The notes: a model not told the origin generated them from the sequence alone. 64,000 bases of DNA from an uncultured bacterium (GCA_963720265.1 CAVRET010000002.1:814069-878068); one strand, 5' to 3'. Numbered from the stretch's first letter, positions 12,854-64,000 are shown. Numbers and translations are program-made.

Positions 12854-14030
12854 CAGCTAAGCTGAACCACCCCACACTCCACTCCAGACGATTTGTCCCG
12901 AGGCCTGCTGCAGTTGCTCGTAGGCCTGGCGGAGCCAGGACGTTTGCTTCTTGGGGTTGGCGCTTGTCACGGTTTGTTTAGTGGGCTTCGTTTCCAGATA
13001 AAGTAGTGCAATGCCAAGGCTGACCAGCCACAAGATGAGCTTTAGGTTATGCGGCTTGGTTAACCTGGTGCGTTTGTACTCAAAGATGTGTTTAATGTCC
13101 CGAAAGGTCTCTTCAATCTCGAATCGGTGGTAGTAAATTCGGATAATCTTAGTTCGACTGCTTCTGAAATCGTTAGTGAGTATGTACCAGGACTCTTTGG
13201 CACGCCGGCTTTTGGGCGAGCGGATAACCCGGAGAGTCAGTCCATATATCTGGACCGTGGTATCCCGGTCTACTAAGGAACTAACCTCGGTCACCTCGCC
13301 GTCACATTCAACATATCGCCCTGCCTTGAGGCGGACATAGAAGGTAGCGTTTGCTGCTGCTAGATGCGTCACAATGGACCGGTTGCCAAAACCGCGGTCA
13401 AAGACCAGTCGGGGCCAGAAGCCGAGCCGGTCAGCCATGGCTTGGAGGCTAGTGACGGTATGCTCGGTAAAAGACTGCTGCCGGCGGGCCGCTTGCATGG
13501 CAGCTCTGAGTTTCTTCCAGTGCGGAGCGGCATTCTCGTGGGCAGGAATATGGTGAGCGTAAGTGGTCTCAACCATACAAGGGAGGGATCTGCCCTTCCG
13601 GGTTTGTACGGCACCTACCAAGGCTGTGAGCCCATGCATGTCCGAGTGATCTACATTTACATAGCTGCGTGGTTTGACGAGCGCCAGCTGGTCAAAAACC
13701 TCTCCGAGCTGGTCGGTAAAGGCGGTGTTTTGGAACATGCGCTCTGCCTTACGCAGACCGGTGTGGGGGTTGGCAACCACCATGCGGGCATTGCCGCTGG
13801 CGCTCTGGAAAGCTCTAAGTCCGTATGCCTGCAGGCCAAACGACAGCTGCGTCCGCCAACGGCTCGGCACACTGGGCATTAATTGCTTTTGTATACGAGT
13901 ACGGATACCCCGTACAATATTGGGTGACGACATATTTGTTTTCCTGTTTGTTTTGAAGTGGACAGAAAACAGTGTGTCGTCTTTTTAGTTGCAGCTCAAG
14001 GAAGTGTGGGGTGGTTCAGCCAGCTAAGCT
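12854..14030. mobile_element. IS4-family insertion sequence with terminal inverted repeats and direct-repeat target duplication
   Basis: An 18-bp inverted repeat, GCTGAACCACCCCACACT (12861-12878), and its reverse complement (14003-14020) flank a single transposase gene. The flanking direct repeat is CAGCTAA(GCT): 12854-12863 on the left, 14021-14030 on the right. Confidence 0.8.
12857..13933 (-). CDS. IS4-family DDE transposase
   Basis: 358 aa with VFDRGFGN and a C-terminal YYHRFEIEETFRDIKH, the IS4/IS5-superfamily Y-x2-R-x3-E-x6-K signature. Confidence 0.85.
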   Translation of the reverse strand: MSSPNIVRGIRTRIQKQLMPSVPSRWRTQLSFGLQAYGLRAFQSASGNARMVVANPHTGLRKAERMFQNTAFTDQLGEVFDQLALVKPRSYVNVDHSDMHGLTALVGAVQTRKGRSLPCMVETTYAHHIPAHENAAPHWKKLRAAMQAARRQQSFTEHTVTSLQAMADRLGFWPRLVFDRGFGNRSIVTHLAAANATFYVRLKAGRYVECDGEVTEVSSLVDRDTTVQIYGLTLRVIRSPKSRRAKESWYILTNDFRSSRTKIIRIYYHRFEIEETFRDIKHIFEYKRTRLTKPHNLKLILWLVSLGIALLYLETKPTKQTVTSANPKKQTSWLRQAYEQLQQASGQIVWSGVWGGSA

Positions 14031-22494: not shown

Positions 22495-23210
22495 GCCAGC
22501 GACCATATACCACGCTCTTTCTTCTTCAATCACTTGACGGTAAGATATCCACCGGCGACGTTGACGAACGGGATATTGATGCCGACTTCCCCAAGTTACC
22601 AGGTATCAAAGAAGGCTTACACCATTATTACGAAATAGAAGGCGAAACCGATCCATTCTCACTTGTGACCGGCCGGTCAATGGCCAAGATCGGCGCAAAT
22701 ACCAAATCCTTCGATAATATAGACCCAATCCCCATAACCTCCATTGTCATAGACAATAAGCCTCACTTAACTGCGCATGGCGTCCAATTTCTGGCACATA
22801 AATTCGAAGATCTCATCGTCGTAACGACCGACAATGCTCATCCTGCTCACGATTTGAGCAACAAACGCTCCAATGTCGTCGTGCTGCAATACGACAACGC
22901 TATAGATTTTATTGACCTGTTCGCAAAGCTTAAGACTGAGTATGAAGCCAAGCGAGTGACCATCCAATCGGGTGGTGAGTTGAATGCTATCCTTCTTCGT
23001 GCGGGCCTCATTGATGAAATATTGCTCGTTATTGCGCCTTGTCTCATTGGCGGACGTAGCACGTCGACATTGGTAGACGGAGAATCGCTACGAACCGTAG
23101 AAGATCTCGCAAAGATCAGATCACTGAAGCTTAAAGCCTGTAAGCCACTGGATGATTCGTATCTGCGTGTGGAGTATGAAGTATTGAATGAAGAACGAAG
23201 TAACGTATGA
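22491..23210 (+). CDS. dihydrofolate reductase family protein (RibD C-terminal-like)
   Basis: MSQRPYTTLFLLQSLDGKIS...IQSGGELNAILLRAGLIDEILLVIAPCLIGG matches the RibD_C/DHFR-like family. ATG at 22491 with a GAGGGAGG RBS, overlapping the upstream stop by 4 nt (ATGA). Confidence 0.7.
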   Translation: MSQRPYTTLFLLQSLDGKISTGDVDERDIDADFPKLPGIKEGLHHYYEIEGETDPFSLVTGRSMAKIGANTKSFDNIDPIPITSIVIDNKPHLTAHGVQFLAHKFEDLIVVTTDNAHPAHDLSNKRSNVVVLQYDNAIDFIDLFAKLKTEYEAKRVTIQSGGELNAILLRAGLIDEILLVIAPCLIGGRSTSTLVDGESLRTVEDLAKIRSLKLKACKPLDDSYLRVEYEVLNEERSNV

Positions 23211-24580
23211 GGACCATCTCAACCAACCCTTCCCGAAATTACGAAACCATCGGCGAAGTTGAGACCTCCACCGAGCAAGAAATCAAAGACGCCGTCACGA
23301 GAGCACGGGCAGCTCAACCTGCCTGGGCGGCGCTCGCACAAGCCGAACGCAATGCCGCCATCGAATCCTTCGTCGAAGCCTGCAGCCAACACGCCGAAGA
23401 ACTTGCCCGCCTGATGAGCCAAGAAATGGGCAAGCCCATCACTCAGGCCCGCGCACAGATTGACGAGAGTGCCGCTCATTTCCACGCCCACATAGACATC
23501 GTCGAAAAAGCCCTCACCCCGGAAATAGTTTTTGAAAACAACACCGAGCGCCACCACCTCACTCGCGAACCACTCGGCGTGGTCGCTTGCATCGGTCCAT
23601 GGAACTTTCCTTTACTCAATATCCCGTGGCAAGCCGGTCAGGCACTGCTCGCCGGCAATACCGTAGTATTCAAGCAATCTGAAGAGATTATCCTGTTTTC
23701 GGCACTAGTAGCTAAGATTTCGGCTAAATCAAAACTGCCTGAAGGCGTATTTACCATGGTCTTCGGCGACGGCTCGGTTGGCGAAATACTCGTTGCTCAG
23801 CCGGTTGATGCCATTGCTTTCACCGGCAGCACCCACACCGGTCAACGCATCACTGAACTGGCCGCCAAACGCTCTACTAAAGTGCTGACCGAAATGGGCG
23901 GCTCAGCTCCGGGCATCGTGTTTGAAGATGCCGACGTACCAGCCATTATCGATACGCTCTACGCAGTGCGTTTTGACAACACTGGACAGTTTTGCGACGG
24001 CCTAAAACGCCTCATTGTTCACGAAAGCAAACTCGATGAAGTCCTCGCCGAGCTTAAAAAAGTTAACGACAAGCACAAGGTGGGCGACGCACTGGATGAA
24101 ACAACCAATCTCGGACCACTAGTGGCTGAGCGTCAGCTCAACTTGCTTCAAGCGCAAATGCAAGACGCTATCGACAAAGGCGCGCAGATAGTCTTTGGCG
24201 GGAAGCAGCCCGATGGCCTTACGGGCGCCTACTATGAGCCAACCGTCCTCACGAATATCACTTTTGATATGCGTGTTTGGCGGGAAGAAATCTTTGGGCC
24301 GGTACTGCCGGTGGTTACTTTTAAGACCGAAGAAGAATCCATACGGCTCGCCAACGACACGATATATGGCCTCGGGGCTTATGTTTACACCACTGACAAA
24401 GAGCGTTATTTCCGCGTAGCGCGGCAGCTACAAAGCGGCATAGTCGCACATAACAATGCACTATATTTCAGTCCCGTGACACCATTTGGAGGCTATAAAG
24501 CTTCAGGCAATAGTCGTTCACTCGGTATCGAGGGATTCCATGAAATGACTCAAATTAAGATTGTGAGTGAGGAGAAATAG
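23207..24580 (+). CDS. NAD(P)-dependent aldehyde dehydrogenase
   Basis: GPWNFPL, the catalytic Glu context EMGGSAP, and the catalytic Cys context GQFCDGLKR. 457 aa. ATGA overlap with the upstream gene. Confidence 0.9.
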   Translation: MRTISTNPSRNYETIGEVETSTEQEIKDAVTRARAAQPAWAALAQAERNAAIESFVEACSQHAEELARLMSQEMGKPITQARAQIDESAAHFHAHIDIVEKALTPEIVFENNTERHHLTREPLGVVACIGPWNFPLLNIPWQAGQALLAGNTVVFKQSEEIILFSALVAKISAKSKLPEGVFTMVFGDGSVGEILVAQPVDAIAFTGSTHTGQRITELAAKRSTKVLTEMGGSAPGIVFEDADVPAIIDTLYAVRFDNTGQFCDGLKRLIVHESKLDEVLAELKKVNDKHKVGDALDETTNLGPLVAERQLNLLQAQMQDAIDKGAQIVFGGKQPDGLTGAYYEPTVLTNITFDMRVWREEIFGPVLPVVTFKTEEESIRLANDTIYGLGAYVYTTDKERYFRVARQLQSGIVAHNNALYFSPVTPFGGYKASGNSRSLGIEGFHEMTQIKIVSEEK

Positions 24581-51960: not shown

Positions 51961-53373
51961 GTGCTTATCTTTATTCAAGATAAGAGCGGATCGTGGATTA
52001 CTGCAGCCTCAGGGCGTTCGTGCTCAGCAACTTGCGTTGTTCGCTTGACAATCTCCGGCCACAAGCTCGGAGACCTGCTCAGGGACCGCTACTACCTGGG
52101 TTACGTCGAGTATGACGGAATCGAGTACGCGGGCAGGCATGAGGCGCTCATCAGCCCAGAGCTGTTTGAGCGCGTCCAGAAGGTGCTGGACTCCCACTCG
52201 GGCACGGGTACGCGGACGCGGACGCATAACCACTACCTCAAGGGCGTGCTCTGGTGCGCTCGGTGTGAGCACCGCTTCATCGTGCAGCGGGCCCGCGGCA
52301 ACGGTGGCGAGTACTTCTACTTCTTCTGCCGGGGACGACAAGAGGGGCTGTGCGATGCACCGTACGTCAACGTCCATGCGGTAGAGCAAGCCGTAATCGA
52401 CCACTACGCCGCGGTCACACTCTCAGACGAGTTCAAGGAGGCTGTACGGGCAAGGCTCGATGGCGCGCTTGCCCATGATCTAGGGAGCACTCAAGCAGTC
52501 CGTGACCGGCTGGAGGCCCGGCTTGCCGCACTCGACACCAAGGAAGACAACCTGCTTGACCTGGCCGCGGACGGCGAGCTACCGAAGGAGAAGATCAGGG
52601 AGAAGCTGCGTACGATCCGAGACGAGCGTGCCAGCATTCGGCGCGATATCGAACGGCTCGACGCTGAGCTTGAGACTGGCCGTGCCGTGTTCGGGCTCGC
52701 GCTCTACCTGCTCGACGAACCGCAGGAGCTGTACCGGCAGGCCGGGCCAGCCCTGCGGAAGGCGATGAACCAAGCGATCTTTACCAGGCTCAAGCTAGAC
52801 GGCCGTGCAGTTACAGCTGATGAACTGGCTGAGCCGTTCGACGTGATCGTGCCTGCTGGTCGGGCCTACGACCGACGCACCTACCAACGTAAAAGACCAC
52901 CCGCACCGTTGAGCGGAGTGGTCTTCCACGAAGGCATCTTGGCCTATGATCTAACCTCGGCTGATCTGCTAGAACTTGGCCTAGGGGGCATTGGTTCTAG
53001 TAAGTCCGCCATGGTGGTCTTAACGATTGCTCTTCAGAACATTTCGGCCACTCAGAGGATCACTGAATTATACGATGCAGTCAAGAATTGTAAATCCCGG
53101 TCCCAGAATAAGACTCGACGAGTGCCGGCGCTTCAGCTCTCCCCTGCCCGCCGAGGACTTGATATTGATCGGCTGGCTACCGACTACCGGGCCGGCTGGA
53201 CGTTGCAACAGCTGGCCGACAAGAACGGCATCCATAAGGATACGGTAACACTGCAACTCAAGAAGGCGGGAGTCAATATTCGGCCAAGAGGAAGCAATAT
53301 GCGCGGAAAGTTAAGTTATTTTATTCCGCCGCGTAACTCCTCGGGCCGTTTTACCAGTACTACCAGTTGTTAG
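51961..53373 (+). pseudogene. large serine recombinase lacking the N-terminal catalytic domain, fused in frame to a copy of the small HTH gene
   Basis: Starts inside the recombinase domain (RDRYYLGYVEYDGIEYAGRHEALISPELF). Zinc ribbon CARCEHRF...YFFCRGRQEGLC and a coiled-coil region follow. From about 53011 (CCATGGTGG, a motif variant) the frame continues into ...RRVPALQLSPARRGLDIDRLATDYRAGWTLQQLADKNGIHKDTVTLQLKKAGVNIRPRG. Confidence 0.5.
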
Positions 53374-53383
53374 GTCCAGGACC

Positions 53384-53893
53384 TTACAGGCCTGCGTCAC
53401 GAGCTATAAACTTTACTGTTTGCTCAAGCGAGTATTCTTCTAGGATGATCTTTTCACCCTCGAAACTGGTGAGGTCGCGGTGCCGATACCACTCCGTCAT
53501 TTCCTTCTCGCCAAAACCGGAGCGAATGTGAGGCGGCTTGGTAGCGTGTCTCCTAAGAGTCTCTTCGAGTGAGACATCAAAATAGTAAACGTAGTGCTCC
53601 GGACATTGGCCCAGCAGTTTCGTGAGCATCCCACCGTAGCGCCTAAAGCTCAGAATACCTTCAAGGATAACATCGTACTCACGAGCCAGGGCAAACTCAA
53701 CAATCTGCGCTATTAACGCAATGTTCGCGCCATCGTCAGTTTCTTTCTCCTTGAGAATAGTGCGGCGGATGTTGTCTTGCTCAACATAGGCGATCTTGCG
53801 AGAGCTAACTTCTCTCAGTTGTTTGGCAACTGAACTTTTTCCTGACCCGGAGTTACCACGGAGGATAATGAGTTTTGAGTGGTGAATGGCCAT
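53384..53893 (-). CDS. P-loop kinase (AAA_33-like)
   Basis: Walker A LRGNSGSGKSSVAKQL. 169 aa, typical of small nucleotide or antibiotic kinases. Confidence 0.6.
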   Translation of the reverse strand: MAIHHSKLIILRGNSGSGKSSVAKQLREVSSRKIAYVEQDNIRRTILKEKETDDGANIALIAQIVEFALAREYDVILEGILSFRRYGGMLTKLLGQCPEHYVYYFDVSLEETLRRHATKPPHIRSGFGEKEMTEWYRHRDLTSFEGEKIILEEYSLEQTVKFIARDAGL

Positions 53894-53904
53894 TGGTAGA
53901 AATC

Positions 53905-54585
53905 TTAGTTCTTTGTTGGTGCGAAGAAATGGGGCTTTGAATTGTAAATGTCGTACAGATCATCAAATAGTGCGAGTAGCCGCGGATAGCGAGCAATCTT
54001 GTCTCTTGCTACCTGCATCTTCTCTTCGTAGACGGCTTTGCTTGGTGGGAATGGCTGGTGATCGATTGCGGCCATAACAAGATATGGCATGATCTTATCA
54101 AGTGCATAGACAAAACAACTTTCGGCATCTTCCAGCTGCTCGTAACCCTCAATGGTTTGTGTAATCCAGGGAAAGGCCTTCCCAAATCGTCGCTCAATGA
54201 CCTTGAGTGCTTCGGCCTCGCGGTTGGCCTTACTCGCAAGTTTCTCCGCCGATGACCAGATTGTGGTATCGCCAGCATGCACTTCGACGAGATCGTGAAC
54301 GAGTGCGTACTGGCTCACTTTGCCCAAATCGAGCGATTGATCCAGTTCATGGGCTATGGCGCATCCTAGGGTGGCAAGCAAAAAGCTGTGCTCGGCATCA
54401 TTCTCGAAGCGGTCAAGTTCCGGCTGAACTTTAATGGTTCGGAACGTAGTGGCCGCCGGAATTAGCAGTTCAGAGACTAGGGCAACGGTGTTTTGAGTAG
54501 TCTGTCTTGGCTCGATTGGAGTTTTATTTTTGGAGTCCATATTTTCAGGTCCAGGATCGCTTACGGTTCTTGGACTCTTTAGCAA
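53905..54585 (-). CDS. HD-domain phosphohydrolase (YfbR-like 5'-deoxynucleotidase family)
   Basis: H...HD...E...D pattern: AEHSFLLATLG...ALVHDLVEVHAGD. Confidence 0.6.
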   Translation of the reverse strand: MLKSPRTVSDPGPENMDSKNKTPIEPRQTTQNTVALVSELLIPAATTFRTIKVQPELDRFENDAEHSFLLATLGCAIAHELDQSLDLGKVSQYALVHDLVEVHAGDTTIWSSAEKLASKANREAEALKVIERRFGKAFPWITQTIEGYEQLEDAESCFVYALDKIMPYLVMAAIDHQPFPPSKAVYEEKMQVARDKIARYPRLLALFDDLYDIYNSKPHFFAPTKN

Positions 54586-54859
54586 TCACGGCATCATACA
54601 TATCAATATCCATCAAGCTTGCGAGGCCTAGAAGTACGATCTGAACGTCGGCAAGCTCCTCAATGAGGTCAGTTTGGCGGGTAGTATCAGTGAATTTTAG
54701 GCCAATGGTTTTGCGAACCGCCTTGGCCAGTTCACCAACTTCCTCCATGAGCATGACTAGTTTTTTGCTCGGGTCTTCGGTGTTGAACTTGCGCTCAATA
54801 TTCATTTGCCAGACATAGGCTTGCAGCTTCTTTAATGAGTCATCGGCTGGTAGCTCCAC
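54545..54859 (-). CDS. MazG-like nucleotide pyrophosphohydrolase
   Basis: EEVGELAKAVRK and EELADVQIVLLGLA are the two MazG EExxE/D metal-binding helices. Confidence 0.65.
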   Translation of the reverse strand: MELPADDSLKKLQAYVWQMNIERKFNTEDPSKKLVMLMEEVGELAKAVRKTIGLKFTDTTRQTDLIEELADVQIVLLGLASLMDIDMYDAVIAKESKNRKRSWT

Positions 54860-54861
54860 AA

Positions 54862-55812
54862 CTATGCTCCTCCTATCATTGAATATACAATTCCCTCGGC
54901 CACGTTGGAATTACTCGGGATGATGTAAGGGCTGCCCAAGCGCTCGGCCAGTATCGCAATATTTACAAACGCTTTATCAATACCCCACATGTAACCCTTC
55001 TGAAACTCGTATTTGGCCTCACGCTCCGCAAAGGTTAGTGGCAGTACTTGAGCGACAAACTCATTAAGATACCTCGTATAGGTTTTATACGGGTGAGAGG
55101 CGGAATCGGTGTGCTCGTCCAGTGGTAAGCCAATGGCTTTCATCATATCGATCACATTGGTGGATCCATAGATTATCGGTAAGCCCTCGGCTGGCGCTAC
55201 TCCAACTAGCTGTTCCAGAATGAAGTTCTTCATCCGGTCGATATCTTCAGGTGTGTTGAAGCTGTTCTCGTCCAATGAATTATGCGTAAACTTCTCATGC
55301 AGGGTGGCAGAGCCAATTGGTAGGAGATGCATTTGCTCGGGGGTACCCTGGCGGCCGACGATTACCTGGACACTGCCCCCACCCACATCGACTAGGGCGT
55401 ATGGGCGATCTGCCGGGAAGTCCCTTAAAACTGCCTTAAAGAACAAGGTCGCCTCTTCCTCTGAGCTGATATTCTCAACCGAGAATCCAGTCTCTTTGAG
55501 AATGCGATCCATTACATAGGCACGGTTCTTGGCTCGGCGCATGGCGTGTGTCGAGACTACCCGGTACGATTCAACGTCAAATTCAGTCAGCTTATCCCGA
55601 CATCGCTTAAGCTCGGTAATTGTGCGCACCAAGTAGTCGTCCCGCACGTTATCGTCCAACATGTCGCAACCGAAACAAGTTAGAGTATTCGATGCATACT
55701 GCTTCACCAAACTTCCGTTGGGTGACATCGACGCGATGAGGCACTTAACTTTGAGCGTACCAATATCGACTACGGCATAGTTTTCGGATTTACTCACAAC
55801 ATGCTTATCCAT
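54862..55812 (-). CDS. Ppx/GppA family phosphatase (exopolyphosphatase / pppGpp phosphohydrolase fold)
   Basis: ASKHA-fold motifs AVVDIGTLKVKCLIA (phosphate-1) and ALVDVGGGSVQV (phosphate-2). Confidence 0.7.
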   Translation of the reverse strand: MDKHVVSKSENYAVVDIGTLKVKCLIASMSPNGSLVKQYASNTLTCFGCDMLDDNVRDDYLVRTITELKRCRDKLTEFDVESYRVVSTHAMRRAKNRAYVMDRILKETGFSVENISSEEEATLFFKAVLRDFPADRPYALVDVGGGSVQVIVGRQGTPEQMHLLPIGSATLHEKFTHNSLDENSFNTPEDIDRMKNFILEQLVGVAPAEGLPIIYGSTNVIDMMKAIGLPLDEHTDSASHPYKTYTRYLNEFVAQVLPLTFAEREAKYEFQKGYMWGIDKAFVNIAILAERLGSPYIIPSNSNVAEGIVYSMIGGA

Positions 55813-55819
55813 AGTTTGA

Positions 55820-56437
55820 TTATACCGTCATTCCCGACGTACGAAGTACGGTCCGTAATTTGCGTACAAACCGATGCATTTGTGGGTCTAACTTTGTCTG
55901 ATCAATCGCCAAGACTTCGTCAAAGGTGAGCCACCGCATGCCAGCAAACTCTCGCTCGTCGTAGTCGAGTTTATCTGTTTTTGAGCCCTCCAGTACATAC
56001 CAAAGACTCACATCAGTGTGACCGGCGGTCCGGCCAACAGTAGCTGTAGAGGTGATAAAGATTGGCTTATTTCCAACAGGCGTCGTGAACTTGGCTGGTA
56101 TACCAAGCTCTTCGATTGCTTCACGTTCTACCGTTGCCCGAGGGTCTTCGTTTGGTTCAATGTGGCCGCCGGTTGGTAGTAATAATTCGGCATTGCGGTG
56201 GTCAACCAGAAGCATCGAAGACTCGGCAAGATCTACGAGGACGAAATATGACACAAGGTGGCGCGGTGGCTTGTCAGGTTTAGCGACTCGGAATATGGGT
56301 GCCCCCGATTTTATCCATGCAATCACGTCTGATTGATGCTGACGTTCAAGGTCATCAAAGGGCTCTATCCCGGAGACCGCATCAAGAACTATCTTCCGAC
56401 TCGGCTCCATCCCCATTCGTTCCACTACTTGCAACAC
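55820..56437 (-). CDS. NUDIX hydrolase
   Basis: Nudix box GGHIEPNEDPRATVEREAIEELGI. Confidence 0.7.
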   Translation of the reverse strand: MLQVVERMGMEPSRKIVLDAVSGIEPFDDLERQHQSDVIAWIKSGAPIFRVAKPDKPPRHLVSYFVLVDLAESSMLLVDHRNAELLLPTGGHIEPNEDPRATVEREAIEELGIPAKFTTPVGNKPIFITSTATVGRTAGHTDVSLWYVLEGSKTDKLDYDEREFAGMRWLTFDEVLAIDQTKLDPQMHRFVRKLRTVLRTSGMTV

Positions 56438-56506
56438 TCAAACCCTCCCTGAAGTATGACTACTTCGTATATGGTAATTGTTCGGTTGGATGATGTACAG
56501 GGTGGC

Positions 56507-56932
56507 TTAAACTTCCTCAGCGATATTCCTACGATGGGCGTTCACAGCTAATGGCTCCGTTTTGAATCTGAGTAATTCCGGCGACACTTCCAAATTGTAC
56601 AGACTGAGTTGGCCTTTGACAGGAAACGGGTCTTCAAGAACCCGCAAGTTGCTCAGTCCCCACACTTGGGCCCGAGGGTACAACTCAACGCACGCATCTT
56701 CGATGTCGGCCTGCGTCATGGGTCGGATATAGTCAATGGTAACCAGGCAGAGCGCAACGCCTTTGGGCTCGCCCACTCCACTCATTGAGGCACAGATAAG
56801 AATATCGCCCCGATATTTGGTGGTCCAGGTGCGGGTTTCTAGGGTCTTTTTGCCTGAGGCTACAAGATTTGCGTATGGTTGCTGGAGTGATAAGGCTTTA
56901 ACTAACATTGCATCATTATAGGCTGCCATCAC
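56507..56932 (-). CDS. ASCH domain protein
   Basis: ALSLQQPYANLVASGKKTLETR matches the ASCH/PUA-like N-terminal strand-helix pattern. Confidence 0.6.
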   Translation of the reverse strand: MMAAYNDAMLVKALSLQQPYANLVASGKKTLETRTWTTKYRGDILICASMSGVGEPKGVALCLVTIDYIRPMTQADIEDACVELYPRAQVWGLSNLRVLEDPFPVKGQLSLYNLEVSPELLRFKTEPLAVNAHRRNIAEEV

Positions 56933-57020: not shown

Positions 57021-57836
57021 ATGAAAACCTTTAACGACATGGTCGGCTGGTACGCCCAACACCAGAATGACATTAATTTTGTTAAGGATGTCATTTTTGC
57101 TATTGGCGTACTAGCGACTTTTTATGGCTATATCAAGTTTCTGAAATTCCTCACGCAGCGGAAGATGCTAAACAAAAGACAGGAAATGGAAAATGACGCC
57201 AAGTTATACTATGAGGTCCATGACAAGTTAAAGGAGTACGTTGAAGATTTTGGTGCGACGCCGACAAACCTAAGAGACATTGGCATCAGGCTGCTTTATA
57301 TCAAGAATTACCCTTATAACCTTGATAACGACGGCTTTAGGTTCATGCTTTATTACTATTTTATGACCGAGCGTCATAAACCAAGCGGCTACATTTCCGG
57401 CAAAGGCTTGTACGTGCTTGATTACATAAGATATTTCAGCTCCAGCTTTTATGTTAATCCCAAAAACGGTAAGTGGTTTATCGATAAGCAAGGACGTTCG
57501 TTTAAGAAATATCGCGAGCTTACCCACGAACAGCTACTGAAGCGTATCCCCTTTGAAAATATATTTGGCTACGACTTTAATTCTGACTGGTCAGATAAAG
57601 GTGAGCCGGTTTTCTATACCAAGTACAAATATACCGACTGGAAATTATTTGCGGACGATTTAGAGGCCGTTACCATGAAAAATGGAGACTACCCGCTCGA
57701 TAGAGTGACCCTTCAAAAAAATAAGCGGGTACGGTCCAGAATTCTATTTCGCAGGCTCGAAAATGTCATTCGTAAGTACTTTAGAAGCAGAAAGGCAAAG
57801 AAGCGCATCAAACAGGCGAGAGTTCCTGATCGTTAG
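57021..57836 (+). CDS. hypothetical membrane-anchored protein (low-GC orphan)
   Basis: About 38% GC versus 45-60% in its neighbours. One N-terminal TM helix. Lys/Tyr/Phe-rich. C-terminal basic tail. Confidence 0.45.
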   Translation: MKTFNDMVGWYAQHQNDINFVKDVIFAIGVLATFYGYIKFLKFLTQRKMLNKRQEMENDAKLYYEVHDKLKEYVEDFGATPTNLRDIGIRLLYIKNYPYNLDNDGFRFMLYYYFMTERHKPSGYISGKGLYVLDYIRYFSSSFYVNPKNGKWFIDKQGRSFKKYRELTHEQLLKRIPFENIFGYDFNSDWSDKGEPVFYTKYKYTDWKLFADDLEAVTMKNGDYPLDRVTLQKNKRVRSRILFRRLENVIRKYFRSRKAKKRIKQARVPDR

Positions 57837-57896: not shown

Positions 57897-60062
57897 TTAT
57901 GCTTGATCCGGCAAACCCGATCTCATGGATAGTATGCGTTGTCCATGCTCGGCCAAAAAAGTGTTAGTATCGTCCACCGCGAAGTGGTTGCTCACCAGAT
58001 AATCAATTTGTAGCACCTTTGGAAGCAAGCTTAGATATTTGGTACCGATTAGCAAGTCGCTGAGCTCTTTTTCGTTATCGCCGAACCAATCGCCTAAGGC
58101 CTGTGATGTAATGGGTTCGTTCCGTAACGATGATAAATAGGTAACAAGATTTGGGCACGATATTGACGACTCAAAATCATCAAGTGTGATCTCCTCGCTA
58201 GTATCAGCCTTATTCCTCATCTTGAGAAAGAGACGCAGGGTTCTGTTAATTTTAGAGCCTGCAAACGTCATTAGGGTCTGCTTTTGGCCAGACGGGTTTT
58301 GTATCAAGAAGTCATCGCCGTTCGCTGTTAGGTTCTCCTTGCTCAACTTTGACAAAGCATCCTGTATAACGGGGTCGAAATAGGAGTTTATCTCCTCGAC
58401 TTCTTGGAGGCAGTGCAACATTTCGCGCCGCACTACGTGTGATATATCCCCAGCGCCCCCTCCAAATATTGGCGCTTTGCCGTCAGTCGCCGGCGTGACG
58501 TGCATCTTCTTGCTATAGGTATCAATATCTGTGATTGTCCAAACGCGAGCCGCTAAGTATACGTTCGCCCCTATGGTTGTCGCCATCGTAAGGGGCATTT
58601 CACCAATATGTTCATGGTTATTAATAACTTGGAATTCCATCTTTGCCTCAAAGTGCGCATAAAAGTCTCTTGATTCAATCGATTTTTCAGCCGCTAGTCC
58701 GGTGACATACGAGCCATCAACATCTTCAATGAAATCAATTTCCATCAAATGATCGATGACTTGCTTGATTTGGTCTCCACTTATGTCTCCCCAACAATCC
58801 AACGCATTTAGCTGCACTAATAAGTCTTGGCGAGATAGGCCGCTGTACTGTAATAGAAGAGATAGCGCTTGCTGGACGAGCACGTTATATGGCTTCTTTA
58901 TGGGCACAACCTGCTCTATAGTGCCGCGCTTGTGAAGTTCCAGGGTCGCAATGCTCTGCAATAACGACCATTCTTTGGAAGCGTACAGATGAAGGATGCT
59001 GTGATGCTTCTGTCGGCCACTTCGTCCCAGTCTCTGGGTTAACGACGCTACGGAAGGTGCGCCTTCAACTTGGGCAATGCTGTCAACTGCCCCAATATCA
59101 ATTCCTAGCTCTAAGGTCGAAGTGCAGCAGATTGTGAACAGCTGTTGTTTGGATGTTTTTGCGAACTCCTCCGCTTCCAAACGTAAATCCTTGTCTACAG
59201 ATGCGTGGTGAGCAAAGTATCTAACGTTGTTTTTCGTCCGTTTTGCCCGACGTTTCAGGCCCACCGCTATTTCTTCCACTCGACCCCGAGCGTTTGGGAA
59301 CACTAGCATGCTTTCCCTGCACGAGTAGTCGAAGATGTCATCGATAATGCCAGACGAGGTGGTGGGCCCGTCAGATTGCTCATACAGGATAGTTGTTGTT
59401 AGTTCGTTTCTGCTACTGTCGAGGAGAACACTGGCATCACGCTCGGCACCAAAAAAGTGCTTTGCGATAACATAAGAATCACGATTGAGCGTGGCGGTCA
59501 TACCAATGTAGCGCGGAGACCGTTTAGCAAGTTTACGAATTCGCCCAAGTAAAGACTTAACATGAACGCCTCTAGACGTATCCAAGAAGCTATGCAGTTC
59601 GTCAACAATGACCCACTCGGTATCGCCAAACAGAGACTGTGCCTCGCCGGGGCGACGAGTAAGCATTGCCTCAAGCGACTCAGGGGTTATTAGCAGTATC
59701 CCCTTGGGGTCTTTGAGTAAGCTCTGTTTCCGTGATCTAGACGACTCACCGTGCCAGCTTGTTACCGGGATATCTAAGTAAGCACATAATTCCGTTATCC
59801 TATCAAATTGGTCATTTATGAGCGCGATCAACGGTGATACGTAGACTATTTTTACGCCACGCGACCAGTCCTCGACCGCATTGATGGCAGGAATAAATGC
59901 AGCTTCTGTTTTTCCTGATGCAGTTGGTGCAGCTAATATTAAGTTGTTACTGCCGTCATGCGCGTGTTGGATGGCCGATTCTTGAATCTTCCGGAGCTCC
60001 GGCCACCCCTGGTCGTAGATGTACTTAACAATGTCTCGTTTGAGGAGATCTAAAACACCCAA
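57897..60062 (-). CDS. Lhr-like DEAD/DEAH-box SF2 helicase (SngC-like)
   Basis: Motif I AAPTASGKTEAA, motif II VIVDELHSF, SAT-like MTATL, motif VI QRLGRSGRQ. A long C-terminal extension of about 330 aa follows the helicase core. Confidence 0.75.
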   Translation of the reverse strand: MGVLDLLKRDIVKYIYDQGWPELRKIQESAIQHAHDGSNNLILAAPTASGKTEAAFIPAINAVEDWSRGVKIVYVSPLIALINDQFDRITELCAYLDIPVTSWHGESSRSRKQSLLKDPKGILLITPESLEAMLTRRPGEAQSLFGDTEWVIVDELHSFLDTSRGVHVKSLLGRIRKLAKRSPRYIGMTATLNRDSYVIAKHFFGAERDASVLLDSSRNELTTTILYEQSDGPTTSSGIIDDIFDYSCRESMLVFPNARGRVEEIAVGLKRRAKRTKNNVRYFAHHASVDKDLRLEAEEFAKTSKQQLFTICCTSTLELGIDIGAVDSIAQVEGAPSVASLTQRLGRSGRQKHHSILHLYASKEWSLLQSIATLELHKRGTIEQVVPIKKPYNVLVQQALSLLLQYSGLSRQDLLVQLNALDCWGDISGDQIKQVIDHLMEIDFIEDVDGSYVTGLAAEKSIESRDFYAHFEAKMEFQVINNHEHIGEMPLTMATTIGANVYLAARVWTITDIDTYSKKMHVTPATDGKAPIFGGGAGDISHVVRREMLHCLQEVEEINSYFDPVIQDALSKLSKENLTANGDDFLIQNPSGQKQTLMTFAGSKINRTLRLFLKMRNKADTSEEITLDDFESSISCPNLVTYLSSLRNEPITSQALGDWFGDNEKELSDLLIGTKYLSLLPKVLQIDYLVSNHFAVDDTNTFLAEHGQRILSMRSGLPDQA

Positions 60063-61391
60063 TCACAAGACCTCAATGTCGTCGTCGTGGTTGTCGGCGT
60101 CTTTCTGTAATGACACATTGCTGGTTGTACCAAAGGTCTTGTCGAGCAGTTCGTTTATGGACGTTTCTGGATTCTGACGCGCGACGCTGAGAATTTGAAG
60201 ATATTCCCTAATGACTGTTCGTGGCGTCAGGAATTCGGCCGCGCCAGGACGGTTTAGCTGGCCTTCCATGTATTTGGTGATATTTTCGCTGTTACACGGA
60301 ATGCTTACGCTATAGTGCTGTTCAAAAATTGTCTTAAGTTTACTCAACAGGGTAAAAATATCTTCTTGGGATAGCGGCCTGAGATAGACTACAGGTTGGG
60401 ATAGGTCTACATATTGGTTATCATCAAACTTTCCGAATGAGAGTCTTCCTTTAAGTGCTTCGTAACTGAAGAGCCCGCGACGTTCATCCTCCAGGAACCT
60501 CCGCGTACCACCGAAGTTAACAAACATATTCTTGGCTCGGCCCTGAAGGCAGTCATTATATATGCTCATGATCCGTTCATAATTCTTATCGCGAGTCTGA
60601 CTCTGAGCGATTTTGTACAAGTTGATCGCTTCATCTAAGTTGATCACGAAGCCCTGATAACCGACGGCTATGAACAGTTCGGCGAGGTTTTTTAGCATGT
60701 CATAGTAATTGCTATCGGTAATGATTTCGCGAACACCAATCTCGCGGAGGGAATCAGTCTTGGCCGTATACTGCCCTTTAAGCCAACGAAGTGCACTTTC
60801 TTGCAGTTCGACGCTTCCAATTGCATAGCCCTCAAAGTACTTCGCAATGGCCTGGCCAAATTCGAAACCGCCTGGAGCGCTGAACTTTCGCGTGGTTTCG
60901 ATTATTTTGTCGACAACAAGTTTACGGTTGTCCTTAACCAGAGAATCAAAATCAACCTGAGCGGCTTCAATCACTTCGTTCATCAAGGATTCGATCCATT
61001 GATCAAGAATGCTACTTAAGGCGTTGCCGTCCTGATTTGTCTGCGTAACTAAGTTGCTAACTATTTCGGAGTATAGTGCTCGGGCCTTACCGTCACTTGC
61101 ATACAATCTGTTGACTGGCGTGAAGTCAACCTTGGACACAACAAAATTGGTCTTTAGGGCCAGCGACTCGATGAGCTGCAACATAAAACTTTTACCGCTT
61201 CCAAAGTCACCTATCCAGAATCGAACTTCGCTGTTGCCCTTTGCAACGTTCTCTAGTGAGCTAATGATGGCATCTGTTTCTTTGCCGCGACCCACCAGCA
61301 TATGCTGGATGCCGGTACTTGGCACGACGCCACCTTGCAGGGCGTTAATAATACTTGAAGATTCTTTTGCCTTTAACCCTACAAGTTCCAT
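60063..61391 (-). CDS. P-loop ATPase (SngB-like / DUF2791-type)
   Basis: Walker A WIGDFGSGKSFML, Walker B-like VINLDEA. 442 aa. Stop is adjacent to the helicase start, and it overlaps the upstream gene by 1 nt. Confidence 0.65.
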   Translation of the reverse strand: MELVGLKAKESSSIINALQGGVVPSTGIQHMLVGRGKETDAIISSLENVAKGNSEVRFWIGDFGSGKSFMLQLIESLALKTNFVVSKVDFTPVNRLYASDGKARALYSEIVSNLVTQTNQDGNALSSILDQWIESLMNEVIEAAQVDFDSLVKDNRKLVVDKIIETTRKFSAPGGFEFGQAIAKYFEGYAIGSVELQESALRWLKGQYTAKTDSLREIGVREIITDSNYYDMLKNLAELFIAVGYQGFVINLDEAINLYKIAQSQTRDKNYERIMSIYNDCLQGRAKNMFVNFGGTRRFLEDERRGLFSYEALKGRLSFGKFDDNQYVDLSQPVVYLRPLSQEDIFTLLSKLKTIFEQHYSVSIPCNSENITKYMEGQLNRPGAAEFLTPRTVIREYLQILSVARQNPETSINELLDKTFGTTSNVSLQKDADNHDDDIEVL

Positions 61392-63592
61392 TAGATCATT
61401 TCCTTTACAGCGTCACTGTATTCTTGTTCTAGTATAATTTTACCATCAACTTGCCGTATTACCTGATCTTCGAATAAACCGTAGAGTACCTTATTTACAG
61501 CTTGAATGTAGGCATTTATAAGTTTGCCGCGAGATTTAGCAAAGGTGGCACCATCGCCGATCGCGTATCCGTCTTGTGTTTCACAGATCTGCCGCAAGAA
61601 TTCTTTTTGATCATCGGAAAGCGTTTCAATGACGGTGGGCGTGACGGCATCGGACTTGGTATCCGGTGCCGAGGCGGACCGGGCTATTTCGATGGTAGTA
61701 ATGGGCGCGAGAGGCTTTTCGTCTGAGACCTCGTCATCATCGTCTCCAAGGTAGCCAGCGACGCTTCGTACGGCGTGATTGTGATCCTCGTATGCCATTC
61801 GTACTTTGCCCTCATCTAACACAACATGCCGAAGAGGCGGCTTCGTAAACGAGGCTAACTCTTCTGCTACCTCAGCGGTCACCGGCTGTTTGCTCGCGAC
61901 GAGAGCTTGATACGATCCAAGTTGATCCGGGTGAATCAGCTTCACTAATTGCCTGGTCGTCCAGTCGTCGAGCGTACCGACCTTGATGTTCATCGCATAG
62001 ATGGAAACCAGCTGCACTTTCTTGTCCGGGTGAGATCTAAGTATCTCTCGTGTCAGCCTGCTTGTAACTGAGCCATCATCGTACTTGTGTAAGATAGCTA
62101 AAACATCAGCGAGCGATTTGTTCTCCACCCCTGCAATATCCGATTTCCACGCCGAGGGATTCTGCGAGATTAACTTCTCCATGGTTTCGCTGGACAGACT
62201 AATTGGCTCTTGCACATCTTGAGCAGCAGCGATAACCGCATTCGCCGCGTCTCTTGGGATAGCTCGCCGTATCAAGTCGAGCTCCTTGTCTACGGCCAGC
62301 TGTCGAACGTAAGGTAATTTCTCGCGAATAGCTTCTTCGCACAATTTGAGGATATGATTGAGCAGCATGAATTGATACGGATCATTGACATAGCGACTGG
62401 TTCCTCCAAAAACTGCATCCAGGTACTTACTGATGCGGACCTTCCAGCCATCAGACGTTGACCGTTGCTTATTTAGAACGTCAAGAACTCGTAGATAATG
62501 GCGATATATGAGTACGCGGACTGCGGGTATCTCGAAGATCCGAGTCGAGCGAGGAGGCGTGATGTTGAGCAGCCTCTGCTGCGATTCGCTCAATTTATAG
62601 TATTTTCGTAATAACCCGTCGGTATCCCACCAAACTATCGGGAAGCCGCTTGGTGTTAGGCCGAACGCGCGCTTAATATCATTGTTAGCGGGTGGCAGTT
62701 CCTCACAGAGTTTTAGCGCGTAGGCTCTTGTACTCGTGACTAACTGTATGCCGGTACTTCTTTCCAATAACTGGTATGAGAATGAATTATCGTAAGCACG
62801 ACTACCCGTATAATGCTCTGTCACATGTCCTTCCGCGATGCAGAAGATTGTGTACAGAAGATTATTGTAGTGTGAATACTGATCTTGTGGCATGTGAGTC
62901 CTTAGGTATTCCAGTGACGATCCGCTCTTGCTAAGCTCAGTATCTATATATTTTGCTAACTGCTCGTAAAGCTCGTAAACAGCTTCCCGTAACTGCGGGA
63001 TTCTGAGATTGTTGCGCTCGTAAGGGATATCGAGCCGAGACACCCAATCTGTATGTGTCGGCGTCAGCTGCTGTGGTTGCGATACTGGCGCCAAAATTGC
63101 GGTTGGTTTGAGGTTCGAAACATCGTAAATTTTGATGTCATGCTCAGGTCTTACAACTGTGTGAGGCCGCGCTGGAGTAGTGGAGAGCCGTACAATATCG
63201 GAGAATTTCGGTTGAGGGCGTTGAGGTGCGGCAACCACCGTCTGGCTTTGCGCCACGCTAGTATCGGGTGGACGTGGCACGTCATGAGGGCTTGCACTAC
63301 TACGATCTGGCAACCTCGATTCGATCACACCTGGATTTGGCGGTGCCACACGAGGTCTGGGCTTGTATTTACTCAGAAGTATTAGGCCCTCGATAAGCGT
63401 AAACGGGATCCAAAACAAGATGGCCATACCAAAGGTCAAGATCGTTGAGAGTAAGATTAAAGTGCCGCTCAGTTTTCGGCCTAGGTAGTATCGGTGCAGG
63501 CCGAGCGAGCCAAAGAATATGCTGAGTAAACTAGCTACTAAAGCATTTTTTCGGTTCTTGGTGAGTTCAGACGCACTTACAAAATATTTCAT
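61391..63592 (-). CDS. TM2-domain membrane protein with large cytoplasmic domain (position and size of SngA/TerB-like component)
   Basis: N-terminal TM2 domain (KNRKNALVASLLSIFFGSLGLHRYYLGRKLSGTLILLSTILTFGMAILFWIPFTLIEGLILL), then about 640 aa. First gene of a tightly packed three-gene operon with overlapping stops and starts. Confidence 0.55.
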   Translation of the reverse strand: MKYFVSASELTKNRKNALVASLLSIFFGSLGLHRYYLGRKLSGTLILLSTILTFGMAILFWIPFTLIEGLILLSKYKPRPRVAPPNPGVIESRLPDRSSASPHDVPRPPDTSVAQSQTVVAAPQRPQPKFSDIVRLSTTPARPHTVVRPEHDIKIYDVSNLKPTAILAPVSQPQQLTPTHTDWVSRLDIPYERNNLRIPQLREAVYELYEQLAKYIDTELSKSGSSLEYLRTHMPQDQYSHYNNLLYTIFCIAEGHVTEHYTGSRAYDNSFSYQLLERSTGIQLVTSTRAYALKLCEELPPANNDIKRAFGLTPSGFPIVWWDTDGLLRKYYKLSESQQRLLNITPPRSTRIFEIPAVRVLIYRHYLRVLDVLNKQRSTSDGWKVRISKYLDAVFGGTSRYVNDPYQFMLLNHILKLCEEAIREKLPYVRQLAVDKELDLIRRAIPRDAANAVIAAAQDVQEPISLSSETMEKLISQNPSAWKSDIAGVENKSLADVLAILHKYDDGSVTSRLTREILRSHPDKKVQLVSIYAMNIKVGTLDDWTTRQLVKLIHPDQLGSYQALVASKQPVTAEVAEELASFTKPPLRHVVLDEGKVRMAYEDHNHAVRSVAGYLGDDDDEVSDEKPLAPITTIEIARSASAPDTKSDAVTPTVIETLSDDQKEFLRQICETQDGYAIGDGATFAKSRGKLINAYIQAVNKVLYGLFEDQVIRQVDGKIILEQEYSDAVKEMI

Positions 63593-63805
63593 GACTTGAG
63601 ATTACAGAACATTGTTACTACCAGGTGAAAGGCGAGTTAAACAAAGACGGGCACTCCCATGCCACCAATGTGTATCGCCAATCGTAAACGGGTTGATATC
63701 CCGTCGGTATAATTGTGACATCAAGCTCTATTTTACGCCAATAGTTGCTTCTTGAACCGGAATGTCATGATCGATTGTGCGGATGGTGCCACCGTCGATC
63801 GGAAC

Positions 63806-64000
63806 TCAGGATGCCAAGAGTGTTGAGCCCGACGAGACTTCGATCTGTTTTGATTTATTGATTAGGTCATCTTCAAACTGCTTGATTCCGGCAACTGATG
63901 GCTCGTAATCACTCGTGTCGGGAAAGTCCAGTGACATTATTGATTGCCAGACGGCTTGAATGATGAGCGATAACCGTTCAACATCAGCATCAGAGATTTC
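63806..64000 (-). CDS. hypothetical protein, 3' end only (start beyond window)
   Basis: The minus-strand frame is open from the window edge to the TGA at 63806-63808 (65 codons). Absent from the ORF track because there is no Met in the window. Confidence 0.25.
   Translation of the reverse strand, partial: EISDADVERLSLIIQAVWQSIMSLDFPDTSDYEPSVAGIKQFEDDLINKSKQIEVSSGSTLLAS

Follow-up and report, generated by a model that had tools for sequence, protein, structure and literature searches.

A divergent Shango (SngABC) operon with a predicted membrane-tethered SngA in an uncultured bacterium

Homologues of the Shango system gave protection against phages in Escherichia coli and in Pseudomonas aeruginosa (Millman et al. 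2022, 10.1101/2022.05.11.491447; Johnson et al. 2022/2023, 10.1101/2022.11.11.516204). The validated systems are described with TerB, a domain (PF05099) that PMC10952713 lists for Shango, and in those descriptions transmembrane (TM) segments go unmentioned; the Shango label also appears in a survey of the defence systems that the Bacillus cereus group carries. TerB has been reported as membrane-associated, and from that report comes the only published idea about mechanism that we found, namely that TerB hints at “membrane surveillance.” Here, we take up a single locus, a three-gene operon in a 64-kilobase (kb) stretch of DNA from an uncultured bacterium (GCA_963720265.1 CAVRET010000002.1:814069-878068; this whole stretch is “the window,” and its positions are used throughout), and we ask two plain questions: what is this operon, and what might its first protein be doing at the membrane? 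By the profile matches given below, it is an intact, complete Shango (SngABC) system of a divergent subtype, and it is probably functional.

All three open reading frames (ORFs) lie on the minus strand, and one candidate signal precedes them:

61391-63592, minus strand: sngA, 733 amino acids (aa), ATG start
60063-61391, minus strand: sngB, 442 aa, ATG start
57897-60062, minus strand: sngC, 721 aa, TTG start
63650-63663, minus strand: terminator-like hairpin in the 213-nucleotide (nt) spacer upstream of sngA (consensus scan only, with a site count not above that of shuffled sequence)

A preliminary description of this DNA had proposed three co-oriented genes with overlapping or abutting stops and starts, and the ORF listing and both junction sequences agree with it, coordinates included. 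At the sngA/sngB junction (...ATC TAA TGG...), the final A of the sngA TAA stop is also the first base of the sngB ATG, a TAATG overlap at 61391; at the sngB/sngC junction (...TTG TGA TTG GGT...), the sngB stop ends at 60063, and the TTG of sngC stands directly after it at 60062. The three genes are translationally coupled, and purine-rich motifs resembling Shine-Dalgarno sequences (AAGGAAA and GAGG) lie 8-9 nt ahead of the start codons of sngB and sngC. For sngC, the TTG is consistent with the SngC profile (protein residue 5 is aligned to profile position 7), and the abutment of sngB and sngC is also present in the loci L001, L003, and L009, the last being an identical metagenomic contig that extends the context upstream of the window. 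A conserved N terminus, MxYFV, in 12 homologues backs the ATG start of sngA. The candidate hairpin probably closes the transcription unit before sngA and, so placed, would mark the 5′ boundary of the operon; in the promoter and terminator scans alike, sites were no more numerous than in shuffled sequence.

How firmly can the system be named? The identity calls come from PADLOC hidden Markov models (HMMs) applied to single proteins and from Pfam and NCBIfam profiles, and the best PADLOC model for each protein was its Shango counterpart: SngA (1.8e-14), SngB (3e-150), and SngC (3e-186). The SngB match spans profile positions 6-422 of 439, the SngC match spans positions 7-717 of 720, and the SngA match sets sngA residues 320-732 against positions 189-526 of 528. 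A chance observation is far excluded, because the HMM E-values reach 1e-186. The genes are also co-directional, tightly linked, and in the Shango order, as had been suggested from the sequence at the outset; the NCBIfam scan of the operon proteins gave no Shango-specific match. As genome annotation, this is routine: existing SngA, SngB, and SngC models recognise the operon.

The two partner proteins are the easier part. SngB matches Pfam PF10923 (BrxC_BrxD) at E 8e-132, which upholds the earlier call of a DUF2791-type P-loop ATPase (we take PF10923 to be the former DUF2791), and with GDFGSGKS as Walker A (residue 61) and FVINLDE as Walker B (residue 248), it reads as a BrxD-like P-loop ATPase with intact catalytic motifs. 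SngC matches the Pfam families DEAD, Helicase_C, and ResIII and, below threshold, WH_Lhr (21.7 bits against a cutoff of 27); it carries APTASGKT, DELH at 154, TAT, and QRLGRSGR at 343, and by these motifs, it is an Lhr/BrxHI-like superfamily 2 (SF2) DExH helicase with its catalytic motifs likewise intact. The NCBIfam model for the ligase-associated DEXH helicase gives SngC 218 bits against a cutoff of 850, and on such scores, SngC is Lhr-like but no Lhr equivalog; the SF2 helicase of the preliminary description is upheld by DEAD and Helicase_C, with the weak WH_Lhr match besides. None of the operon copies compared has lost Walker A or B or any of helicase motifs I, II, III, and VI. The same description had been prepared to yield if 61391-63592 held no TerB-like domain and if the ATPase and helicase belonged to unrelated families; what we find is a TerB_C domain in that interval and Sng models as the best matches throughout.

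SngA is the more unusual protein. We built an AlphaFold2 (AF2) model of it on a 61-sequence alignment (mean predicted local distance difference test score, or pLDDT, of 84), and this model, together with the profile matches, divides the chain as follows:

63368-63553, minus strand: TM2 two-helix membrane hairpin, aa 14-75 (Pfam PF05154, AF2, hydrophobicity)
63053-63367, minus strand: Pro-rich disordered tether, aa 76-180 (composition, AF2, homologue variability)
62198-63052, minus strand: conserved all-helical core, aa 181-465 (AF2 pLDDT >90; motifs WWDxDGxLR and LKLxExxxR)
61835-62197, minus strand: helical “mid” domain, aa 466-586 (inserted with respect to Bacillota SngA, as an hhalign gap shows)
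61406-61834, minus strand: TerB_C domain, aa 587-729 (Pfam PF15615)

The protein starts with a TM2 domain, as had been claimed: PF05154 matches residues 14-61 (E 1e-9; 38.9 bits against a gathering score of 27.9), the two helices lie at aa 17-36 and 40-75 in the model (pLDDT 93-96), the hydrophobic window is at aa 41-74, and I62, P63, and E68 do not vary within the clade. The tether that follows has 20 Pro in 105 residues, is disordered over residues 83-149 (pLDDT <50), and varies in length and sequence between homologues. Beyond it, the body (aa 181-615) is modelled as nearly all helical with pLDDT mostly >90. The core, in which D323, E419, and R423 are invariant across the 61 sequences, sits in place of TerB_N without detectable similarity to it, and the mid domain occupies the position where proteobacterial SngA bears TerB. 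TerB_C itself is recognised by PF15615 (E 2.4e-8; 34.8 bits against a cutoff of 26.3), and in the model, it consists of a helix (594-615), an acidic disordered stretch (616-653), and then the order helix-helix-helix-strand-strand-helix across 660-732, a C-terminal unit that looks like a winged helix. A Foldseek search of the model against the PDB gave no significant match and only weak ones (LysR helix-turn-helix, MotA, and ScpB type; ∼75 residues, E >4).

Which way does the hairpin face? Lys or Arg residues border it at both ends, SngA has no hydrophobic segment other than this hairpin, and the partners are cytoplasmic nucleic-acid enzymes; for these reasons, we infer an N-in/C-in hairpin, with the body of SngA in the cytoplasm on a flexible leash.

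The preliminary description had called SngA a TerB-N/TerB-C protein, and of the two, only the C-terminal domain was found. In the window protein, Pfam found neither TerB_N (PF13208) nor TerB (PF05099) at E up to 1, and among full-length members of its clade, it found them in 0 of 61 at E up to 0.1. We made one HMM each from the TerB_N stretches of Bacillota and of proteobacterial SngA and a third, custom one for TerB. The two TerB_N HMMs recognise each other’s clade weakly (E 3e-6 to 1e-2, a positive control), and with hmmsearch, both give about 0 bits on the window clade, in which the custom TerB HMM finds nothing. Local hhalign comparisons of the core and the mid domain with TerB_N and TerB alignments were negative, in a setting where the positive control (Bacillota against proteobacterial TerB_N) failed as well, so we give them no weight and go by Pfam and hmmsearch. 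The mid domain was considered as a diverged TerB and set aside, there being no similarity by Pfam or by the custom HMM.

A full-length profile-profile comparison finds window residues 257-733 homologous to Bacillota SngA (probability 98.4%, E 4.5e-15; limited to the core, the same comparison gives 58%), with residues 257-465 aligned to the Bacillota stretch after the TerB_N start and no detectable similarity before residue 257. Because of this match and of AF2 models with a like overall plan, the window and Bacillota proteins can be called homologous on profile evidence. The N-terminal half of the window core has, then, either diverged past sequence recognition or been replaced, and since both regions are helical, a remote structural kinship of the modelled core to TerB_N may exist. 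TerB is missing from the sampled Bacillota SngA too, so TerB is not universal in Shango.

Who are the relatives of this SngA? A word-indexed search returned only 12 close ones (39-45% identity), all with TM2 and TerB_C. Three of them are represented by contigs (L001, L002/L003, and L004), on each of which the A-B-C operon stands with the same coupling. The operons there neighbour serine recombinases, Replic_Relax, TrwB/DUF87-like genes, or transposases, and their flanks are otherwise all different. Altogether, the A-B-C order recurs in five unrelated contexts, and the arrangement was seen in eight other loci; loci with SngABC include L001, L002/L003, L004, L008, and L009 and plasmids of Hymenobacter, B. 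cereus, and Sulfitobacter. On the Sulfitobacter plasmid (L007:6015-7727), a PD-(D/E)XK nuclease gene begins 2 nt after sngC, and a fourth gene, for a nuclease, may belong to some Shango loci. Identity to the loci of the three close relatives is 72-80% for SngB, 67-70% for SngC, and only 40-46% for SngA, by which measure SngA is the fast-evolving component, as expected for a sensor or specificity subunit. Scans of contigs from species-representative genomes and of viral contigs (IMG/VR) with the SngA alignment found no relatives, and from the former result, the clade is rare among species-representative genomes.

An exhaustive HMMER search with the window-clade profile reached further, to 188 cluster representatives at E <=1e-10. 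Among 61 full-length clade members, 58 have TerB_C, 27 (44%) have TM2, 3 have Response_reg, and 2 have DUF2510, and across the matches, the N terminus carries TM2, TM2 with bPH, SH3 with TM2, a receiver domain, FtsK-gamma, or nothing. (Proteins with alternative N-terminal modules are P0030, P0038, P0046, P0132, P0159, P0102, and P0016.) The receiver-domain protein P0030 (L008:6001-8298) heads a full SngABC operon. Such architectures suggest phosphorylation or DNA motifs as inputs to some Shango systems.

Outside the clade, about 85 of the 107 Bacillota SngA clusters (Bacillus, Peribacillus, Sporosarcina, Clostridium, and others) have the form TM2 + TerB_N + TerB_C, some of them labelled “NINE protein” or “TM2 domain-containing membrane protein YozV.” Of 1333 homologues found for one proteobacterial SngA, the best 120 all have TerB (PF05099) except P0328, a shortened sequence with TerB_N only, and none has TM2. 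TerB, in turn, occurs in 0 of the 107 Bacillota and 0 of the 61 window-clade sequences, where TM2 is found in most or many; across the 288 SngA sampled (120 proteobacterial, 107 Bacillota, and 61 window clade), not one has both. We thus see three classes of SngA: TerB_N-TerB-TerB_C; TM2-TerB_N-TerB_C; and TM2, receiver, or no N-terminal domain on a helical core with TerB_C. The TM2 fusion itself is not new, being already common in public genomes and the majority form of Bacillota SngA in RefSeq, and the variant that the preliminary description thought worth documenting is not a rare one, since TM2 marks most Bacillota SngA and 44% of the protein’s own clade. In the literature that our search found, the membrane-anchored form is not remarked upon.

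What, then, might the system do? We think it likely that the whole is best explained as a divergent SngABC in which SngA serves as a membrane-tethered scaffold or sensor for the SngB ATPase and the SngC helicase. SngA would recruit both partners to the inner face of the membrane, where phage DNA enters; upon a trigger, the SngB ATPase would license or load the SngC helicase onto the invading DNA; and unwinding or translocation by the helicase would block the establishment of that DNA. The operon has no nuclease gene, so interference would be the work either of the helicase or of nucleases from the host or the neighbourhood. At its N terminus, SngA would carry a swappable device for localisation or input (TM2, receiver, FtsK-gamma, or nothing) and not the effector. 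We read TM2 as accessory because, in a clade with the same core, 27 of 61 members have it, 3 have a receiver domain, and others have neither.

One can go a step further, if tentatively. Membrane attachment could be a core requirement of Shango, met in Proteobacteria by an amphitropic TerB and in Bacillota and the window clade by a hard-wired TM2 hairpin; the window clade would then be a distinct subtype, with a new helical sensor body on a leash that places an ATPase and a helicase at the site of DNA entry. We regard this as a possibility with the odds against it, in which the TM2 hairpin could be a hard-wired substitute for TerB. If true, it would be the first solid lead on how infection is sensed by Shango, and the census turns a vague idea about membranes into a testable link between SngA and the membrane.

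Several points weigh against this account and its extension, and it is best to have them in one place. The SngA HMM covers only 64% of its profile, and the absence of TerB_N and TerB means that this SngA may work differently from its validated counterparts. That TM2 and TerB exclude each other comes from three clades only and may be plain inheritance rather than function; clade members with a receiver domain, or with nothing at the N terminus, speak against an obligatory attachment to the membrane. The winged-helix call depends on the order of secondary structures and on nonsignificant Foldseek matches (E >4). Basic residues occur in the loop that joins the TM helices as well (HRYYLGRK), so the positive-inside rule does not favour one orientation. 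Finally, our literature search found no mechanistic study of any Shango system.

Could the TM2 hairpin instead be the effector? SngA, activated by SngB and SngC, would oligomerise, and a TM2 pore would depolarise the membrane in an abortive infection. The second TM helix has an invariant acidic residue (E68 here and D51 in the Bacillota clade), and membrane-disrupting effectors are frequent in defence (the pore-forming DinC, for example, is paired with a TerB protein in Dionysus). We nevertheless find this unlikely: close relatives with the same core, SngB, and SngC either have no TM2 or have a receiver domain in its stead, the validated systems are described without TM segments, and two helices per chain on a floppy linker of 100 residues resemble a tether more than a pore. 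From the TM2-less relatives and the TM-less descriptions, the effector must lie in the parts that all of these systems share.

The surroundings of the SngABC operon raise another possibility, and they are listed here from the start of the window onward:

7882-10500, plus strand: TraD/VirB4-like coupling-protein ATPase, well outside the Shango block
12857-13933, minus strand: IS4-family transposase, well outside the Shango block
51961-53373, plus strand: serine-recombinase-like ORF, 470 aa (Recombinase and Zn_ribbon_recom matches, no Resolvase catalytic domain)
53384-56932, minus strand: six-gene nucleotide-metabolising cluster (ASCH, NUDIX, Ppx/GppA, MazG, HD_3, AAA_33-type kinase)
57021-57836, plus strand: orphan membrane-protein ORF, 271 aa, convergent with sngC (one N-terminal hydrophobic helix, very basic C terminus)
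63806-64000, minus strand, and L009:2736-7586: SbcB-like exonuclease I and UvrD/PD-(D/E)XK genes, upstream of and co-oriented with sngA

The operon lies in a block of 45-50% guanine plus cytosine (GC) that starts near 53.4 kb, and the preceding 8 kb are mostly 53-62% GC. The fall from about 0.6 to about 0.49 coincides with the 3′ end of the recombinase-like ORF, which, by its missing catalytic domain, is probably truncated, and a point near 53400 is the likely boundary of an island. The coupling-protein and transposase genes point to mobile-element content outside the Shango block.

Might the operon, then, serve the mobile element that carries it, by acting at the membrane on incoming conjugative or plasmid DNA or by helping to maintain the element? 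All relatives adjoin serine recombinase, Replic_Relax, TrwB/DUF87-type, or transposase genes, the window has its own TraD/VirB4-like gene and IS4 transposase, the GC of the island is below that of its surroundings, and a membrane-tethered helicase would encounter conjugative DNA as readily as phage DNA. A mobile-element context does not discriminate, however, defence systems being typically carried there; Shango homologues did protect E. coli and P. aeruginosa against phages; and the flanking genes differ in each context, as expected of an autonomous defence cassette. We rate this explanation as quite unlikely.

Least probable by far is the reading in which the ATPase and the helicase, as BrxD and BrxHI, were left behind by a BREX type 2 or DISARM-like system whose other genes are gone and stand beside an unrelated membrane protein, a reading that we reject although SngB also matches BrxD (3e-48), SngC also matches BrxHI (6e-122), and the Pfam family of the ATPase carries the name BrxC_BrxD: the Sng models outscore the Brx models (499 against 163 bits for SngB/BrxD and 619 against 406 bits for SngC/BrxHI), the NCBIfam BrxD model stays below its cutoff on SngB (167 bits against 350), the first protein carries TerB_C, matches SngA, and is coupled in translation to the second, and Pfam families pointing to the PglX methyltransferase or the PglZ phosphatase are absent from the genes called within 7.6 kb upstream (in L009) and from the ORFs scanned within 6 kb downstream, as such genes are from around the relatives. 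Nor did PglW, another partner in BREX type 2, show up among the nearby genes that were called or scanned.

The remaining neighbours can be told briefly. Downstream of the operon and in the same low-GC block, the six-gene cluster gave no convincing PADLOC match, only a marginal one to PDC-S07 on the NUDIX gene; it could be a nucleotide-depletion or nucleotide-sanitising module. In L001, a different but similarly themed cluster (nucleotidyltransferase, kinase, isochorismatase, and pP_pnuc_1) lies on the other side of the Shango operon. The orphan 271-aa ORF, without a match in Pfam, PADLOC, or NCBIfam, is also called as a gene in L009. Upstream, 213 nt from sngA, stand the SbcB-like exonuclease I (PADLOC RTasSbcB, 4e-53) and a UvrD-helicase/PD-(D/E)XK protein of 1126 aa (GajB, 2e-78; RTasHel, 1.5e-70), of which only the last 64 codons fall inside the window. 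Near this pair, neither a reverse transcriptase nor GajA can be seen. Because the pair is not conserved beside the operons of the relatives, it is probably a separate module; it may be one for defence in its own right, or it may supply the nuclease that Shango is without. Elsewhere in the window, an aldehyde dehydrogenase (23207-24580, plus strand) has its closest relative among species-representative genomes, at 73% identity, in a metagenome-assembled genome of Candidatus Saccharimonadia (the next is 38%), with unrelated flanks, and this is too slender a link to assign a host.

How does the locus stand beside the systems already known? It shares with the Shango of E. coli and of P. aeruginosa PA14 three genes in the same order (a TerB-family protein, an ATPase, and a DEAD/DEAH helicase), with SngB and SngC profiles matched nearly end to end and the TerB_C end of SngA common to both; it differs in that those systems, by their published description, have TerB, whereas the window SngA has neither TerB_N nor TerB. 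Put in terms of architecture, the sampled proteobacterial SngA is TerB_N, TerB, and TerB_C without TM2, and the window SngA is TM2, a Pro-rich tether, and a different helical core. BREX type 2 has an ATPase from the family of SngB (PF10923) and an Lhr-like helicase related to SngC, as seen in the secondary PADLOC matches. Bunzi (BnzA) and Dionysus (DinB) offer a Ter-family protein with a link to the membrane (BnzA has predicted TM helices, and DinB is a proposed membrane surveyor), but theirs is a true TerB domain, and they have other partners, with no BrxD-like ATPase or helicase among them.

Another comparison is with the operon on the Hymenobacter monticola plasmid NZ_CP094535.1, whose SngB is 51% identical (one of the two nearest in the plasmid collection and the nearer one with annotation) and whose SngC is 43% identical. 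Its SngA, WP_243520316.1, has 505 aa and the annotation “TerB C-terminal domain-containing protein”; it can be aligned with a probability of 99.3% to window residues 325-727, a stretch that takes in the mid domain, and it too is without TerB_N and TerB. It differs in being a short soluble form from which TM2, the tether, and the first half of the core are all missing. The Bacillota example is Bacillus cereus SB1 plasmid p1 (NZ_CP045607.2), where SngB is 46% and SngC is 31% identical to those of the window and where WP_153218510.1 (RefSeq name “TerB N-terminal domain-containing protein”) has TM2 (3-53), TerB_N, and TerB_C, matches the SngA model at 8e-54, and is followed by the ATPase and helicase genes. 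That form differs in having a clear TerB_N (1e-27) and a β-hairpin insert and in having no mid domain (466-586). Its AF2 model, which includes a conserved “LxRLSENVxR” helix, is nonetheless like that of the window protein in plan, each with a TM2 hairpin, a linker, a helical region, a long helix, an acidic linker, and a winged-helix-like end.

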